A stretch of DNA of 64,000 bases from Rickettsiales bacterium (lineage in GTDB: Bacteria > Pseudomonadota > Alphaproteobacteria > Rickettsiales > SXRF01): contig JAOAUZ010000001.1 in assembly GCA_025464625.1 (NCBI GenBank), positions 398,848 through 462,847 of the forward strand, in the 5' to 3' direction. Numbering within the stretch: position 1 is the stretch's first letter; every line of letters starts with the position of its first letter. This document shows, piece by piece, positions 18,967 to 61,285 of the stretch. The translations under genes and the position numbers were made by a program. The notes beneath the pieces were generated by a model. That model was given only the letters and a program-made list of their open reading frames with translations, searched no databases and was not told the DNA's origin.

Positions 18967-19397
18967 ATATTAAACTCTATTTTATCTATAAAAAATCGGA
19001 TTTTGGCTGGTGTTGAAGAATCAAACGCGTGGAGTGATAATAGTGGTAATTTATGTTCAAGGCAATCAAAGAACTGCGCTTCAGGCAGCCGTTCCACTGC
19101 ATCGCGTGACACTAGATTTATGGCAAGTTTTAACTCTATATCACGAATAAACGGCAAGGTTAAAATGCCAATTCCACGAGCCTCCATCATCCCTTCCAGT
19201 TGTTTTGGCGGAGAGGCTGTAAGAATATTATTTTGCGAACTTATTTCAACGTAATCATCGGCAACTAGCTGCGCTCCGTTATCTATCATACGCAGGGCTA
19301 TGTCGGATTTTCCGCTTCCAGAATCGCCAAGCAACAATATCGCTTTATTGTTGACGCTTACACAGCTAGCGTGGATTATAGTGTTTTTAGATGACAT
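18963..19397 (-). CDS. hprK: HPr kinase/phosphorylase, short alphaproteobacterial form (C-terminal domain only)
   Basis: 144 aa with GDSGSGKSD P-loop and ARGIGIL. This length is typical of the truncated alpha-type HprK. Confidence 0.8.
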   Translation of the reverse strand: MSSKNTIIHASCVSVNNKAILLLGDSGSGKSDIALRMIDNGAQLVADDYVEISSQNNILTASPPKQLEGMMEARGIGILTLPFIRDIELKLAINLVSRDAVERLPEAQFFDCLEHKLPLLSLHAFDSSTPAKIRFFIDKIEFNI

Positions 19398-19428
19398 AGA
19401 GTTTATTTTTAAGGTAATAAAAGCAAAA

Positions 19429-20553
19429 ATGCCAGCATTAGACGAAATATTAACGCAGAAATTGCAGATATTAGAGGCAAAGCAGCAGAAGCGTGTGCTT
19501 ATTCCCAGCGTGCGTCATGATGGCGCGTATATTTCGCGTGGCGGGAAAGATTTTATATCTTTTAGCTGCAATGATTATCTTGGGCTGTCGTATCATCCCA
19601 AAGTTATAGCTGCTGCCAGTGAAGCATTGCAGAAATATGGGGCAGGGGCAGGGGCATCGCGCCTTGTTACTGGCGAATGCCAGCTTTATGGTGAACTGGA
19701 GAGTTTGCTTGCTAAGTATAATGGCGCAGAATCGGCGTGCGTGTTTGGTAGTGGATATTTGGCTAATATAGGCACTATTCCAGCACTGGTTGGAAAAAAC
19801 GATCTTATTCTTGCGGATAAATTGTCCCATGCTTGCATAATTGACGCAGCGAAACTTTCAGGTGCTACCATGCTGCGTTTTGCTCACAATAACTCGGCAC
19901 ATCTGCGGATGTTATTGGAAGCCAATCGTGCGGAATATCAGAATTGCCTGATTGTTACTGAAACAGTTTTCAGTATGGATGGTGACACAGCACCTCTTGT
20001 AGAATTGGCAGAATTAGCAAAGGAATTTGCTGCTTGGCTGATGACAGACTCAGCGCATTATTTTTTACCAACAACCAGCCACAAGCAACCAGCAACCATC
20101 AAGATGGGAACTCTCTCCAAAGCAGCGGGAAGTTACGGCGGGTATGTTTGTGGTTCAAATACTTTAATTGAATATTTGAAAAATGCAGCGCGCAGCGTAG
20201 TTTTCTCTACTGGTTTGCCACCTGCAAGTTTGGCAGCCTCAATAGAAGCTCTAAAAATTATGCGAAGTGAACCAGAGCGATTACAAAAACCACTGGAAAA
20301 CGCAAAATTATTTACAAGTATATTGGGTATTCCAGAAGCGGGGAGCGCAATTGTTCCGCTTATTCTTGGCGAAAATGATAAGGCAGTGACAGCCTCTGCT
20401 TTACTGGCAGAAAATGGATTTTTAGTGGCGGCAATCCGTCCGCCAACTGTTCCAGAAAATACAGCGAGGCTACGCTTTACATTTTCTGCCTTGCATATGA
20501 AGGAACAAATTGAAAAACTATGCTCCATTATCAAAAAGCAGGGTTGGGTATGA
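19429..20553 (+). CDS. bioF: 8-amino-7-oxononanoate synthase
   Basis: PLP-dependent fold with FSMDGD and TLSKAAGSYGG (Lys). ATG at 19429 chosen because the longer ORF from 19300 would overlap hprK. Confidence 0.88.
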   Translation: MPALDEILTQKLQILEAKQQKRVLIPSVRHDGAYISRGGKDFISFSCNDYLGLSYHPKVIAAASEALQKYGAGAGASRLVTGECQLYGELESLLAKYNGAESACVFGSGYLANIGTIPALVGKNDLILADKLSHACIIDAAKLSGATMLRFAHNNSAHLRMLLEANRAEYQNCLIVTETVFSMDGDTAPLVELAELAKEFAAWLMTDSAHYFLPTTSHKQPATIKMGTLSKAAGSYGGYVCGSNTLIEYLKNAARSVVFSTGLPPASLAASIEALKIMRSEPERLQKPLENAKLFTSILGIPEAGSAIVPLILGENDKAVTASALLAENGFLVAAIRPPTVPENTARLRFTFSALHMKEQIEKLCSIIKKQGWV

Positions 20554-48990: not shown

Positions 48991-49779
48991 ATGCGTCTTT
49001 TTATCAGTTTATTGTTTATATCGGTTGTTTTTTCATACCAAGTTTTTGCGGATAATGGTTGCAGCTCTATTGTTGATAAAAAATGTGATTGGGAAAAATA
49101 CTTGATAATAGCCAATGATGTTGAGGTTAAAATTACTGTTCCTGAGAAACAGATTATTGATTATTCCATAAGAAAAACTTTGACCAATACAGCTTCCGAT
49201 TGTCCGCAAGGGAAGTGTATATGTGAGGAAATCGTTGGCTCTGTAGAGCTTATTGGAAAAGCTGATGGTTTGGAATTGATTAATGAACAAGAGAAGAACC
49301 GCTCAGAAGATTATCGTTGCAATATCACAAAAGTATACGGGCGACATAGACCACAATTTGTCTATGCTACACCTCAAATAGTTAGCATTGTATCCTACAA
49401 TCTAAATTATATTCGTGACGTTACAGAATCATGTCATGGTGAGCATCCATTTATTACCTATGACGCGCTGTTTGCTGGGAGATACCTACTAAAAGATATA
49501 ATTGCAGGAAATATATCGGCACTCAGTGATGCGTTAGTGGATGATTTTATTGTTCGTTATGCTAAACAAGATAGCGGAGATGTAGAGAATATAAGACAAT
49601 CTGTACAAAAATATATAAAAGAAAACCCACCAGAAAATTCTGGATTCGTCGTTGAAAATGGCAAAATATATGTAAACATTGGGGCTTTTATATTTGGTTG
49701 TTCTTCTGGTTCATTTTATCCTGTAGAAGTCCCAGAAAAATTTATTAATAAAGAGTTTTTGAGTAAGATAAAGAAGTAA
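48991..49779 (+). CDS. Hypothetical secreted Cys-rich protein
   Basis: Signal peptide [20 protein letters not shown] and ten cysteines. No family confidently recognised. Confidence 0.5.
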
Positions 49780-49784
49780 AAAAT

Positions 49785-51050
49785 ATGCACGATATTAAGT
49801 TTATAAGAAATAATCCTGAAGCGTTTGATGCTGGTTTGATTAGGCGAGGGCTTACACCTCTTTCTGCCGAAATTTTGAAGTTGGACGAAGAAAAGCGCAA
49901 AAGCCAAACCGCGTTGCAGGATCTTCTCGCTAAGCGCAACGGTTTTGCCAAAGCTATTGGTGAAGCAAAAAAAACAGGGGCAGATACTACCGCTATTATG
50001 GCGGAAGCCAAACAGGTGAATGATGAAATTGCTAGGTTGGAAGGCTCACTTGCTGGGCGTGGCGCGCTGGAAGAGATGTTGGAAACTATTCCAAACTTGC
50101 CTGCTGCTGATGTTCCTGATGGTGAGGATGAAAAAGGCAATGTGGTAGTTCGTGTTGTTGGAGATAAACCGCAAATTAATTTTATACCTAAGGCTCATGA
50201 TGAACTTGGTGTTAATCTTGGGCTGATGGATTTTGACGCTGCTGCCAAACTTTCTGGCGCACGTTTTGTGGTGCTGAAAGGCGCGCTGGCAAAAATGGAG
50301 AGGGCGTTAGCAAACTTCATGCTGGATATTCACACCAATGAATTTGGCTATACCGAACATGTGCCGCCGTTTCTGGTGAAAGACAATGCAATGTATGGCA
50401 CTGGGCAATTGCCGAAGTTTGCTGAAGATTTATTCAAAACGGAAAATGGATTCTGGCTAATTCCCACTGCCGAAGTTCCACTTACCAACCTAGTTGCGGA
50501 TAGCATTATTGATGCGGAAAAACTGCCAATTCGTATGACGGCTTATACACCTTGCTTCCGCTCAGAAGCTGGGGCTGCTGGCAAAGATACACGGGGCATG
50601 GTTCGCCAGCATCAATTCTCTAAAGTGGAGCTGGTTAGCGTTGTGGCTGCTGATAAATCTGGGGAAGAACATGAACGGATGACAGCATGTGCAGAAGAGA
50701 TTCTAAAACGCTTAGGGCTTCATTACCGTGTGATGTTGCTCTGCACTGGAGATATGGGGTTTGGCGCGCAGAAGACTTATGATCTGGAAGTGTGGCTGCC
50801 TGCACAAAATACCTTCCGCGAGATTTCTAGCTGCTCCAATTGCGGAGCGTTCCAAGCTCGGCGTATGAAAGCCCGAAGCAAGGCGAAAGGTGCTAAGGAA
50901 ACTGAATTTGTACATACTCTCAACGGCTCTGGTCTTGCCATTGGTCGCACTATGGTGGCGATATTGGAGAATTACCAGAATGCAGACGGTAGTATAACTG
51001 TTCCTGAAGCACTGCGACCTTATATGAATGGCTTAAGGCTTGTGGCTTAG
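49785..51050 (+). CDS. serS: Serine--tRNA ligase
   Basis: N-terminal coiled-coil arm and class II motifs ([15 protein letters not shown]). The last 7 codons lie inside the left inverted repeat. Confidence 0.93.
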
Positions 51051-51475
51051 GGCTTAAGGAGATTAGAATGGAAGTGCAAAGCTACAAAGATTTAAGGGTA
51101 TGGAAGCAGGCTCGTGTTTTTGTAAAAACAGTTTATTTAATAACCAAAAAATTTTCTAAAGAAGAAATGTTTTCATTAACTTCGCAAATCAGAAGGTCAG
51201 CTATCTCTATCCCCTCCAACATAGCTGAAGGATATTCTAGGCACGGGTTAAAAGATTATATAAATTTTGTATCTATTGCTTTTGGCTCCGCTGCGGAATT
51301 GGAGACACAATTATTACTAGCTTCTGATCTCGGCTACATCACTATAGAAGAATGCGATGATTTATTGCAAGAATTATTACATATACAAAAAATGATCTAT
51401 AAATTACATGATTCTCTGAAAGCAAAATTATAATTATGTCATCTAACTTAAGCCCTAAGCCACAAGCCATAAGCC
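51030..51475. mobile_element. Candidate inserted cassette: four-helix-bundle gene bracketed by a 29-bp inverted repeat
   Basis: Left arm 51030-51058 is ggcttaaggcttgtggcttagggcttaag. Right arm 51447-51475 is cttaagccctaagccacaagccataagcc. 28 of 29 positions are complementary. It interrupts the serS-surE junction. Confidence 0.45.
51068..51433 (+). CDS. Four-helix-bundle protein (23S rRNA intervening-sequence protein / Avd-like family)
   Basis: YKDLRVWKxA, SQIRRSAISIPSNIAEGYSR and GSAAELETQL are the hallmark blocks of this family. Confidence 0.85.
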   Translation: MEVQSYKDLRVWKQARVFVKTVYLITKKFSKEEMFSLTSQIRRSAISIPSNIAEGYSRHGLKDYINFVSIAFGSAAELETQLLLASDLGYITIEECDDLLQELLHIQKMIYKLHDSLKAKL

Positions 51476-52239
51476 ATAATTCGCCTAGAATTTTAATCAC
51501 TAACGATGACGGCATAAACGCCGAAGGGCTAAAAGTGTTGGAGCGTATTGCGCGTGCTATTTCTGACGATGTATGGGTTGTTGCACCTGAAACTGAGCAG
51601 AGTGGCGCGGCACATTCGCTTACCTTGCATCTTCCAGTGCGTGTAAGGAAAATTGATGCCAAGCGTTATGCCGTAAGTGGAACGCCGACAGATTGTGTTC
51701 TGCTTGCGCTTAAAGAAATAATACCAGTCAAGAAAAAGCCTGTAACTCTTGTTCTTTCTGGGGTTAATTATGGCTCCAACGTTGGCGATGATGTCACCTA
51801 TTCAGGAACAATTGCAGCAGCTATGGAAGGAACTATTCTTAATGTGCCGTCAATTGCCATTAGTTTGCTTTGCAATGGCTCGGAAAAACTTCATTGGGAC
51901 ATGGCAGAGAAAAAAGCACCAGCATTAATAAAAAAACTTGTTGAAATTGGATGGGCTGATAACACCCTTATAAATATGAATTTTCCTGATTGTGCTGCAA
52001 GCAAAGTGCGTGGGGTCAAAGTCTGCTCGCAAGGAAAGCGCATTGTAAATATCAAGCTTAGTGAAAGAGCAGACCCAAAAGGGCGACCATATTTCTGGCT
52101 GGGTGGTGAGCGTGATAACACCCCTGAAAAAACAGGTGTGGATATTGATTATCTGCATAATAACTATATCACCATCACTCCTATTGGTATGGATCTCACC
52201 GACTATAAATCCATGAAAAAAATTGCTGAAGTTTTTTAA
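51436..52239 (+). CDS. surE: 5'/3'-nucleotidase SurE, with a 16-aa N-terminal extension encoded by the right inverted repeat
   Basis: RILITNDDGINAEG and SGVNYGSNVGDDVTYSGT. No in-frame ATG, GTG or TTG lies between 51436 and the conserved RILITNDDG. Confidence 0.9.
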   Translation: MSSNLSPKPQAISHNSPRILITNDDGINAEGLKVLERIARAISDDVWVVAPETEQSGAAHSLTLHLPVRVRKIDAKRYAVSGTPTDCVLLALKEIIPVKKKPVTLVLSGVNYGSNVGDDVTYSGTIAAAMEGTILNVPSIAISLLCNGSEKLHWDMAEKKAPALIKKLVEIGWADNTLINMNFPDCAASKVRGVKVCSQGKRIVNIKLSERADPKGRPYFWLGGERDNTPEKTGVDIDYLHNNYITITPIGMDLTDYKSMKKIAEVF

Positions 52240-52262
52240 TTAAGAATTAATTATTTTTTGCT

Positions 52263-52967
52263 ATGTCATATTGTGTGAATAAGACAAAAAAATCTCGTGA
52301 AGTTTTTCATTCTACGCCAACCATTCCAGTGGCGGTTGATGATGTTTCTGACCGTATACGCCTGCTTATGAAGCTCCGTAATTGTGGCATCCATGATCGG
52401 GCGGTTCTTTCCGCCATGGAGGCTATTCCTCGTGAATTGTTTGTCGAAGAAATTTTCCGTGAACATGCTTATGATGACACCGCTTTGCCGATTGCTCTAG
52501 GGCAAACAATTAGTCAGCCGACAATAGTGGCAAAGATGACGGTAGCACTAGACGTTCATCCGAGAATGAGTGTATTGGAAATTGGAACTGGTTCTGGTTA
52601 TCAGGCGGCAGTGCTTGCAAAATTAGCACGCAGGGTATACACTATCGAGCGTCACCGCGACTTATTGGCTTCTGCCGAACAAAGGTTTTTGCAGTTACGC
52701 CTTACTAATATAGTTACCAAGCGTGGTGATGGTTCAAAAGGTTGGAAAGAAGCAGCACCTTTCGAGCGCATTATAGTTACCGCTGCTGCGAATGATATTC
52801 CAGCAATATTGGTTGATCAGTTGGCTGCTGGTGGTGTAATGGTGTTGCCAGTTGGTGATAATATTGCAGAACAAAAATTATTGCGCATCACTAAAGATGC
52901 GGATGGAAAAGTTACGACAGAATCTTTGATGGGAGTGCGCTTTGTTCCGCTTGTCGAAGAAAAATAG
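52263..52967 (+). CDS. pcm: Protein-L-isoaspartate O-methyltransferase
   Basis: TISQPTIVAKM and EIGTGSGYQAAVLA motifs. Confidence 0.88.
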   Translation: MSYCVNKTKKSREVFHSTPTIPVAVDDVSDRIRLLMKLRNCGIHDRAVLSAMEAIPRELFVEEIFREHAYDDTALPIALGQTISQPTIVAKMTVALDVHPRMSVLEIGTGSGYQAAVLAKLARRVYTIERHRDLLASAEQRFLQLRLTNIVTKRGDGSKGWKEAAPFERIIVTAAANDIPAILVDQLAAGGVMVLPVGDNIAEQKLLRITKDADGKVTTESLMGVRFVPLVEEK

Positions 52968-60447: not shown

Positions 60448-60570
60448 AGTTGTTGGCGTTTAGCTATTAGCTGTTAGTTTTTATAGTCAGTTAATTGTTG
60501 ATGTTGTATATATTTATCTGTTACCTATCAACTTTAATTTCTAGTCGCTAACCGCTAACCGCTGACAACT
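60448..60570. repeat. Imperfect 30-bp inverted repeat with no ORF between the arms
   Basis: Left arm agttgttggcgtttagctattagctgttag (60448-60477) against right arm ctagtcgctaaccgctaaccgctgacaact (60541-60570). 22 of 30 positions are Watson-Crick complementary, with several further G:U-compatible positions. Confidence 0.4.
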
Positions 60571-60574
60571 TAAC

Positions 60575-61285
60575 ATGCACCGCTTCGCCAACCCAGCCAA
60601 CTTCATTCGGATCGCTGACAAGCTTCTTCCATTCATGATTGTGCTTACAATCTTGTTGCTTATTTTTGGATTGGTGGAGGCTCTATATATTTCTCCTCCA
60701 GATTACCAGCAGGGCGATAGTGTTCGCATTATGTATGTGCATGTGCCGTCAGCGTGGATGTCGATGATGGTATACACAGTAATGGCGGGCGCTTCTGCGA
60801 GTTTTTTAATATGGCGACATCCTTTGGCGGATATTGCTTCCCGTGCCAGCGCTCCACTGGGGGCAGGCTTTACACTCATCACACTAATAACAGGCTCTCT
60901 ATGGGGTAAGCCAATGTGGGGGGCATGGTGGGTGTGGGACGCTCGCCTTACCTCGGTTCTTGTATTATTTTTTATGTATATCGGTTATATTGCTCTTTCT
61001 GACAGTTATGCGGCGCAGGAGCGTGGCAAAAAAATCTGTGCGATAATGGCGTTGGTAGGCTTTGTTAATATTCCTATTATCCGTTTTTCAGTAGAATGGT
61101 GGAATACTCTCCACCAGCCAGCCAGCATTATCCGCAGCGGTGGTGTGGCGATTGATGGTGCAATGCTTATCCCGCTCCTTTCAATGGGTGTTGCTTTTAC
61201 ACTAATTTATTTAACTCTGCTTGTAATACGCATCAAAACCATGCTCATTCAGCAAAAAATTAAACGTTTGCAATTCAATTTATAA
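60575..61285 (+). CDS. ccmC: Heme exporter protein CcmC
   Basis: WWD motif: WGKPMWGAWWVWDARL. Confidence 0.9.
   Translation: MHRFANPANFIRIADKLLPFMIVLTILLLIFGLVEALYISPPDYQQGDSVRIMYVHVPSAWMSMMVYTVMAGASASFLIWRHPLADIASRASAPLGAGFTLITLITGSLWGKPMWGAWWVWDARLTSVLVLFFMYIGYIALSDSYAAQERGKKICAIMALVGFVNIPIIRFSVEWWNTLHQPASIIRSGGVAIDGAMLIPLLSMGVAFTLIYLTLLVIRIKTMLIQQKIKRLQFNL

Follow-up and report, generated by a model that had tools for sequence, protein, structure and literature searches.

Intervening sequences (IVSs) in 23S ribosomal RNA (rRNA) and the S23p genes associated with them have been without a known function or origin for more than 30 years. In Coxiella burnetii, the IVS in helix 45 of the 23S rRNA has a 28-base-pair (bp) stem with tandem GACAGAT heptamers ahead of the S23p start, is cleaved by RNase III and holds a decaying open reading frame (ORF) that is probably not expressed (PMC4990558), and ORF-bearing 23S rRNA IVSs are found in Leptospira as well (PMC4990558). 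The Xanthomonas campestris protein XCC0516 (PDB 2GSC) folds as a four-helix bundle and assembles into a toroidal homopentamer (PMC4990558, citing Lin 2006), and genes of this family have also been found wedged into cas operons, in a report that does not mention flanking arms (PMC3936711). Bacterial heptamer arrays have been regarded as a separate oddity, G-rich examples (GGGNATC and similar) having been described from Xanthomonas and Nostoc with no gene family linked to them (Rehm et al. 2015, PMC4692102). Here we analyse a locus that ties both phenomena together outside rRNA. It lies in a 64,000-nucleotide (nt) stretch of the Rickettsiales assembly GCA_025464625.1 (contig JAOAUZ010000001.1, positions 398,848 to 462,847; referred to as the window), where an inverted repeat of heptamer arrays encloses a gene for a PF05635 four-helix-bundle protein (IVP, for both gene and protein) between serS and surE. 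What is new is the location of an IVS-type cassette in an operon junction, where alleles and apparent decay states of the cassette can be compared at a single orthologous position; no description of such a gene-plus-inverted-array cassette outside rRNA was found in the literature searched.

The inverted repeat of the window comprised 31 nt, of which 30 were complementary (97%), with 388 nt separating the arms. It was thus two bases longer than the 29-bp repeat (28 of 29 positions) given in the first-pass annotation of this DNA. When the arm 29-mer was searched for with up to three mismatches, only the two arm positions were recovered in the window, with 0 expected from 100 shuffles. Each arm consisted of four tandem heptamers, namely GGCTTAA GGCTTGT GGCTTAG GGCTTAA on the left and TTAAGCC CTAAGCC ACAAGCC ATAAGCC on the right, and the left array ended 9 nt ahead of the IVP start codon. 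A 15.4-kb contig from metagenome run X1 spanned the region with zero differences, and the boundary between left arm and IVP was present and exact in run X3, from an independent sample, which rules out an assembly artefact; a form skipping the cassette was not seen in the DNA runs examined, and a search of RNA runs recovered none that contained it. An Rfam scan of the window returned no family at threshold and the flanks are serS and surE, so the element does not lie inside a 23S rRNA helix.

The gene in the loop matched PF05635 with 135.8 bits (cut-off 33.8), residues 7-111 covering profile positions 1-105 of 106, and TIGR02436 with 131.2 bits (cut-off 24). Among solved structures, its closest homologue was XCC0516 (2GSC_A, E = 2.2e-21), followed by a BT_0352-type protein (2RLD_A, E = 1e-06). 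These matches bear out the earlier assignment to the four-helix-bundle (23S-IVS) family. At 32.5%, the GC content of the gene was well below the 42-47% of serS, surE, pcm and nlpD. The ratio of nonsynonymous to synonymous substitutions (dN/dS) was 0.075-0.092, with dS saturated, showing that IVP is kept by purifying selection. A role in defence was considered and rejected, the sole PADLOC match being an insignificant one to GajB (E = 0.004).

Both arms are predicted to be translated by the neighbouring genes (Table 1). In relatives, SerS usually ends in GG[LI]K[VM]I[GA]. The left arm replaces the last codons of the gene, yielding NGLRLVA in the window, just as first proposed, and NGLERLGA in one relative (L005; L-numbers denote loci of relatives and P-numbers SurE homologue sequences), while in L007 the serS stop is intact and the left arm lies downstream of it. 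On the other side, the surE ORF reads MSSNLSPKPQAISHNSPRILITNDDG from its first codon, and SurE profiles start to match at residue 18. No ATG, GTG or TTG was present between position 51436 and the conserved RILITNDDG, which upholds the earlier proposal that surE begins 16 codons early and reads through the right arm. The original surE ATG, still seen in L177 as ...CTAATGCCTAGAAT..., is TCG in the window, and the peptide SSNLSPKPQAISHNSPR would be a marker of the translated extension.

Table 1. Features of the cassette and its flanking genes in the window
Feature	Coordinates	Strand	Basis or remark
serS (Pfam Seryl_tRNA_N + tRNA-synt_2b); last ~7 codons, NGLRLVA-stop, from the left arm	49785..51050	+	
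Left (5′) arm, four GGCTTNN units, containing the serS stop TAG (51048-51050)	51028..51058	+	Inverted-repeat and tandem-unit analysis
AAGGAG Shine-Dalgarno of IVP, 6 nt from its ATG and shared in part with the innermost bases of the left arm	51056..51061	+	Sequence
IVP gene, 121-residue four-helix-bundle protein (23S-rRNA-IVS / S23p family), in the hairpin loop	51068..51433	+	PF05635, TIGR02436, 2GSC
Predicted SurE N-terminal extension, 16 codons (MSSNLSPKPQAISHNS), starting 2 nt past the IVP stop and running through the right arm	51436..51483	+	
Right (3′) arm, four NNAAGCC units, in the surE frame	51447..51477	+	Inverted-repeat and tandem-unit analysis
In-frame CAA in the right-arm unit whose TAA would be in frame	51463..51465	+	CAA likewise in L005, L007, L011, L010, L096
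Conserved surE body (5′/3′-nucleotidase)	51484..52239	+	PF01975, NF001490, 333 bits

The reading of the right arm in the surE frame appears to have left a trace in the array itself. With a period of 7 nt, the TAA of an NTAAGCC unit falls in frame in every third unit, and in all loci of the two main gene-bearing types described below (A and B) that we read, this unit carried CAA instead of TAA. The resulting peptide was ...SPKPQA... in the window, L005, L007 and L011. In the window, the unit opposite CAA in the left arm showed the mirrored change (GGCTTGT). The locus illustrates how a housekeeping operon can absorb such a cassette, with the arms serving as protein tails, in-frame stops removed and the partner arm altered to match.

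To place this arrangement among relatives, SurE homologues of 64-96% identity were sorted by their N-termini, bearing in mind that typing by peptide pattern is approximate (P0007 and P0020 are doubtful). They either lacked an extension (MPRIL... or MRIL...) or carried one of several recurring extensions of 7-20 residues, because the junction DNA differs, being empty or occupied by a cassette, a hairpin or a single arm. Empty sites, which the first-pass annotation had proposed to look for, were indeed found. In both L003 and L004 (SurE 88% identical to that of the window) the junction contains GCCTAATGCCTAGAATA and ...GTGATAGCCTAATGCCTAGAATA..., the serS TAA overlaps the surE ATG (TAATG) and SurE starts with MPRILITNDDG; the site is empty in the more distantly related L098 as well. 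Type A cassettes, with GGCTTNN arms and IVPs 66-82% identical to that of the window, comprised the window itself, L005/L006/L013, L007/L008 and L011. Type B cassettes (L010/L094, L173, L096 and L177) had GGCATTN arms and IVPs only 53-55% identical to the window's, and L176 combined a GGCATGA arm variant with an IVP of 64% identity. The gap from the IVP stop to the surE ATG was 0-5 nt in every version (TAATG, TAATATG, TAATTATG or TGAATTATG). Hairpins without an ORF occurred in L009 and L174, with GTCATCC-type units (type C), and in L095, L097 and L121, with GTGATTG-type units; the surE ATG lay within or beside the loop in all five. A right arm only was present in L001/L002, the closest relative (SurE 96%), where TAATTCC CCATCCC CCATCCC follows the ATG and no gene is present, and in L012, where surE has moved away from serS and still starts with ...SSHKPQT.... 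A natural allelic series is thus available at one orthologous site: two versions that carry the gene and have diverged from each other, several types of arm, hairpins that lack the gene, relics of a single arm and sites that are cleanly empty.

The gene-less states look like products of cassette decay. The right-arm remnant of L001 is homologous to the type B right arm (MPNSPSPIP versus MPNAQSLIP), and the loop of L095 (GAAAG-AAAATTATGAATA) matched the 3′ end of an IVP cassette, which in L005 reads GAAAGCAAAATTATAAATA, with a score exceeding that of 499 out of 500 shuffles (p = 0.002). The match of the L121 loop to the IVP 3′ end was borderline (p = 0.05), and the loops of L097, L174 and L009 matched IVP 3′ ends no better than shuffles did. 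Because of the L095 match, the L001 homology and the presence of a single clade at one site (see below), we favor an order from cassette to hairpin or single arm and then to the empty site. As to where the arrays came from, we merely note that TAATGCC amounts to the serS stop plus the surE start, that GTGATTGG encodes V-I-G and that GGCTTxAAGG encodes G-L-K; the arrays could have been seeded from such native junction sequence, and equally the stem could have grown into the poorly constrained serS tail.

Two further kinds of hairpin were seen at this junction. In distant alphaproteobacteria, the serS-surE spacer contained unrelated GC-rich palindromes of 130-220 nt (e.g. GTCATTCCGGGGCGCGGGCGAAGCC...), located at 2050-2200 in L099, 2060-2200 in L107, 1770-1975 in L116, 1270-1420 in L118 and 975-1155 in L119. 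Directly after the type C right arm, L174 (1365-1380) and L009 (735-750) carried a perfect hairpin, GCGGAT-AAA-ATCCGC, which is translated as ...ADKIR... in SurE and is kept in both loci, whose SurE proteins are otherwise 77-88% identical to that of the window. The junction seems to tolerate hairpin insertions generally.

We then considered the stem at the RNA level. As the first-pass annotation had anticipated for a serS-to-surE transcript, the stem formed in the predicted fold of the free RNA, with 29.6 of the 31 arm pairs expected, a free energy of –54.9 kcal/mol for the arm duplex alone and a z-score of –4.9 for the whole element. The serS stop was predicted to be paired with a probability of 1.00 and the IVP Shine-Dalgarno with one of 0.99. 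Covariation was assessed by aligning the arms of eight gene-bearing loci, for which RNAalifold returned 19 pairs, 10 of them keeping their pairing through changes on both sides. Paired cells amounted to 90.8%, compared with 72.8% in shuffles, and the covariation score to 0.44, compared with 0.16; none of 500 shuffles reached the observed value in either case. Sliding the partner by 1-3 columns reduced pairing to 18-59%. The arms have thus stayed complementary while their unit drifted between GGCTTNN, GGCATTN and GGCATGA.

In a tree of 122 IVP sequences, types A and B formed one clade of 38 rows (support 100/92), apart from the 84 IVPs of other phyla, and all eight clade members with readable context were located at the serS-surE junction. 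The cassette has therefore long resided at this one site within a group of freshwater alphaproteobacteria that are uncultured. Within type A, dN values of IVP (0.108, 0.112 and 0.284) were similar to those of SurE (0.141, 0.105 and 0.243) and SerS (0.112, 0.114 and 0.213). Over the eight cassette loci, IVP identity and host identity were uncorrelated (r = 0.00). Specifically, the hosts of L011 and L177 are 90/88% identical (SerS/SurE) and their IVPs 59%, those of the window and L010 87/87% and 53%, and those of L010 and L096 75/68% and 82%, so that diverged cassette versions hold the same site independently of host relatedness. On the SurE tree, the states were scattered, type A requiring 10 changes over 10 rows, type B 12 over 14, type C 8 over 9 and type D 4 over 4, as judged by approximate peptide typing. 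At the DNA level, the very recent pair of L173 (a type B cassette with its gene) and L174 (a gene-less type C hairpin) shared 97.3% identity from the point where the surE body begins, and L174 was 87.5% identical to L010 on the serS side and 95.2% downstream. These patterns suggest that homologous recombination, acting through the genes on either side, has swapped versions, hairpins and empty sites while their location stayed fixed. The evidence from the junction as a whole points to long residence, fixed-site exchange and decay rather than to hopping.

The best explanation overall, which we consider fairly probable, is that an IVS-type hairpin cassette has come to reside in an operon instead of rRNA, at the very point where serS and surE were formerly coupled in translation (TAATG). 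The three genes would be expressed from a single serS-IVP-surE transcript, on which a ribosome finishing serS inside the left arm would melt the stem and thereby expose the IVP Shine-Dalgarno. Translation of surE would re-initiate 2 nt past the IVP stop, with the right arm, left free by the opened stem, being read as a leader of 16 residues. On ribosome-free RNA only, the stem would form, hide the start signals of IVP and present a substrate to RNase III, so that the fate of the operon messenger RNA (mRNA) and the expression of IVP would follow ribosome traffic. We hold this model of ribosome gating more tentatively than the identity of the cassette, and would put it at somewhat below even chances. 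If RNase III cut the stem, serS would lose its stop codon and surE its start codon, by which simple excision in the manner of rRNA would harm both genes; cleavage would therefore be expected on untranslated RNA, if at all.

Several points weigh against the cassette reading and its mechanism. We infer co-transcription, the coupling chain and any cleavage, and the loss of the serS stop and surE start upon an RNase III cut, as just described, argues against simple excision of the rRNA kind. The nearly neutral IVP (predicted isoelectric point, pI, 7.8) offers no obvious hint of nucleic-acid binding. The proposed direction of change rests on the monophyly of the clade and one significant loop match, and ancient polymorphism would look the same as exchange by recombination, for which one clear pair supplies the drop in identity at the junction. 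Finally, the covariation stems from few independent lineage contrasts, mainly that between types A and B, and homogenisation of the two arms at the DNA level could equally give such a signal.

The layout of the cassette was compared with that of IVP loci elsewhere in the bacterial domain. We fetched 80 loci encoding relatives 42-82% identical, from named genomes of many phyla, and analysed 84 loci in all. Most of them showed the layout of inverted 7- or 8-nt arrays. In 38 of 84 loci, the two flanks were complementary in inverted orientation beyond the 99th percentile of controls with mismatched flanks. Periodicity was tested with an 18-nt window and controls, a demand for 74% self-match over 35 nt being too strict for arms of 25-35 nt, and periodic flanks were found on the left in 52 and on the right in 58 of 83 loci, compared with 9 of 305 control segments. 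The period was 7 or 8 nt in every periodic right flank and in all but two left ones, and where both sides could be compared it was the same (44/44). The flank upstream of the gene had a G-rich sense strand in 79 of 82 loci. The cassette of the window, with period 7 on both sides and a G-rich left arm, fits this heptamer/octamer layout. Unit sequences varied among the loci, and a search of the sampled loci for conserved 23S motifs returned none. The inner G-rich unit often lay a few bases before the ATG, where it may act as the ribosome-binding site, and such a role would explain the strand asymmetry of the arrays.

A second filled and empty pair came from another phylum. At L092 (2946-3430, in a metagenome-assembled genome, MAG, of Flavobacterium psychrophilum), low-depth contigs from metatranscriptome X15 crossed both arm boundaries of the filled allele, although contigs of this kind cannot reveal cleavage sites. 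A high-depth X15 contig linked 2946 directly with 3430, the 483-nt cassette being replaced by 15 unrelated letters (TTAAAATTATGTCTT), and thus represents an empty allele at the cassette site in the Bacteroidota. A Rickettsiales MAG locus (L023, 2979-3001 and 3353-3375) had arms made of AGGGTTT and AAACCCT arrays, the unit of plant-type telomere repeats; several arm types contain GGG, as this one does, and could fold into G-quadruplexes.

It is conceivable, albeit still doubtful, that PF05635 hairpin cassettes form one ancient class resident in transcribed junctions across the bacterial domain, of which the 23S rRNA IVSs would be only the rRNA-borne members. Their decay would yield the four-unit heptamer arrays and heptamer hairpins that many bacteria have between genes and, in frame, within them, and the serS-surE junction would display the whole life cycle, from the full cassette through swapped versions, the hairpin without ORF and the single translated arm to the empty site. 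The stem would then be a target of RNase III gated by ribosome traffic and possibly read by a pentameric protein. The cassette type is in any case widespread and barely described, and the serS-surE locus provides a good natural series for its study. A small cloned fragment makes testable the selection on the stem at the RNA level, the targeting of untranslated stems by RNase III, the coupling to the upstream gene and the origin of arrays as cassette remnants.

Two other heptamer-array sites in the window are recorded here as observations in their own right. Positions 60448-60570, in the divergent spacer before a + strand gene at 60575, contain an ORF-less period-7 hairpin with GCGTTTA GCTATTA GCTGTTA on the left, CTAACCG CTAACCG CTGACAA on the right and an AT-rich loop of 63 nt. 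It has the design of cassette arms without the gene and folds better than 200 of 200 shuffles (z = –3.7). At positions 20067-20102, five heptamers rich in C and A (ACCAACA ACCAGCC ACAAGCA ACCAGCA ACCATCA) make up a single unpaired array in frame within the ORF of a class I/II aminotransferase of 417 residues (19300-20553); its translation, ...TTSHKQPATI..., resembles that of a translated right arm.

The arms might alternatively be by-products at the DNA level that have no function as RNA, in that slippage would make the 7-nt units and template switching at quasi-palindromes would copy one arm onto the other, keeping them complementary without selection, with the gene just happening to lie in between. 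Such an origin, which we consider unlikely but the most credible of the alternatives, agrees with the tandem-unit structure, with the break in identity at the hairpin and with the variation in unit number among Coxiella strains (PMC4990558). The match of 30 out of 31 positions in the window, next to several mismatches at the variable positions in L005 and L007, also looks like episodic homogenisation. It would leave unexplained, however, why nearly all loci have their G-rich array, as read on the sense strand, ahead of the gene, why the inner unit supplies the Shine-Dalgarno, why the period is confined to 7 or 8 nt and equal on both sides, and why the layout has persisted in many phyla around a gene under purifying selection.

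Somewhat less probable still is a scenario in which the arrays are binding sites of the protein they enclose, a putative toroidal pentamer reading the 7-8-nt repeats in RNA or DNA, and thereby regulating itself or aiding persistence or spread of the cassette. Gene and arrays are tightly associated across phyla, and the related Avd family includes an accessory protein that handles nucleic acids. Each arm, moreover, has some four units, and XCC0516, a homologue, assembles from five identical subunits (PMC4990558, citing Lin 2006). Against such recognition, the unit sequence varies widely among loci, even among the versions at the serS-surE junction, whereas the protein motifs are conserved; the protein is not basic, and hairpins lacking the ORF persist without it.

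The first-pass annotation had described the cassette as an insertion into the serS-surE junction. That it interrupts this junction is borne out by the empty sites of relatives, whereas a fresh or demonstrably mobile insertion is not. A recently mobile selfish element, transposon-like, homing or resembling a miniature inverted-repeat transposable element (MITE), would account for the terminal inverted repeats, the higher AT content of the gene compared with its neighbours, the filled and empty sites and the different arm types in near-identical backgrounds, and older hypotheses do treat rRNA IVSs as mobile (PMC4990558). No target duplication was visible around the element, however, nor any direct-repeat family, and the neighbouring genes included no transposase, integrase or endonuclease. 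When further arm copies were looked for, as the annotation had advised, only the element's own two arms matched, both in the window and, at 82% likeness, in ~3.4 Gb of source-metagenome contigs (runs X1 and X2), contigs showing presence and not absence. A fresh insertion is further contradicted because within a version the divergence of IVP equals that of the host genes serS and surE, with dS saturated, and every sampled clade member (8/8) occupies the same junction, leaving recent mobility a poor candidate. Among the findings that the annotation had named as refuting it (relatives all carrying the gene with neither repeat nor empty site, a unique arm with no sign of mobility or RNA processing, or initiation of SurE downstream of the repeat), none was obtained outright, although the uniqueness of the arm and the lack of mobility evidence count against a mobile element.

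The annotation had further seen in the stem an obvious processing or attenuation structure. That the stem terminates or attenuates transcription on the way from serS to surE would be in keeping with its great stability and its place between two genes, but is highly improbable: the right arm is not followed by a T-run, the supposed loop of 388 nt holds a conserved and translated gene, and surE, which is translationally coupled in relatives, lacks a separate promoter. On the + strand, the junction contained nothing resembling a promoter or a terminator (terminator scan of 50260-52400), because of which attenuation is unlikely.

The surroundings of the cassette were conserved in part. The order serS-surE-pcm-M23 peptidase agreed with the synteny given in the first-pass annotation, and adjacency of serS and surE was widespread in relatives, down to a SurE identity of ~45%. 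The neighbours are an ORF of 262 residues without a Pfam match, serS, surE, pcm and the M23 peptidase gene, with tatC further upstream (called in the loci of relatives). The slot between tatC and serS is variable: the window (48991-49779) and L001 hold the ORF of 262 residues, with a GC content of 34%, L007 has an HTH_17 gene (1472-1798), L176 a ParD/ParE pair and an ORF of 288 residues (343-1712), and L003 is empty there. In L011 (2432-3289), SurE (P0070, 285 residues) has an internal insert of ~25 residues (...GKGQEALGKSGKKMSGTRASGLMPQAC...) that is absent in relatives.

Among known systems, the accessory protein Avd of diversity-generating retroelements, which the first-pass annotation had also mentioned, belongs to a distantly related family of the same four-helix-bundle fold. 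That IVP itself is such an Avd is scarcely credible: its weak matches to bAvd (PF22296, 23.6 bits), NF033474 (23.9 bits) and PHROG 3206 (E = 1e-10) miss the available family cut-offs of 40 bits (PF22296) and 80 bits (NF033474), no reverse transcriptase or template and variable repeats lie nearby (the neighbouring genes being the part of the window scanned), and the relatives all share the serS-surE context without a retroelement. Rickettsia palindromic elements show that palindromic repeats are tolerated in frame within alphaproteobacterial coding genes. The cassette arm is likewise an in-frame palindromic repeat; those elements, however, are multicopy, 100-150 bp long, conserved in sequence and without a gene, whereas the arm is single-copy and has a gene in its loop.

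The ORF-bearing IVS of Coxiella 23S rRNA is the closest described relative of the cassette. Both hold the same protein family in the loop of a stem of ~28-31 bp formed by terminal inverted repeats, both have heptamers next to the start of the ORF and an AG-rich ribosome-binding region in the stem, and both measure ~430-450 nt. They differ in that the cassette is situated in mRNA at a cistron boundary and not in an rRNA helix, with its arms read as protein by the neighbouring genes, and in that its ORF is under purifying selection and has a good Shine-Dalgarno, while that of Coxiella is decaying and probably not expressed. Excision by RNase III has been shown for Coxiella, whereas the cassette is known from its sequence and a cut there would hit coding sequence. 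As for the protein, XCC0516 (2GSC) and the BT_0352-type protein (2RLD) are homologous to IVP in sequence, the pentamer being that of XCC0516. The arrays of Xanthomonas and Nostoc, finally, share with the cassette the 7-nt units, the preference for four units and the position between co-directional ORFs, and they are transcribed. In contrast to the cassette arms, they were reported as arrays standing alone, inverted pairs receiving no emphasis, and the cassette units, having GG and not GGG, are expected to be poor formers of G-quadruplexes. Some arrays of the Xanthomonas and Nostoc kind may nevertheless be remnants of cassettes such as the one between serS and surE.

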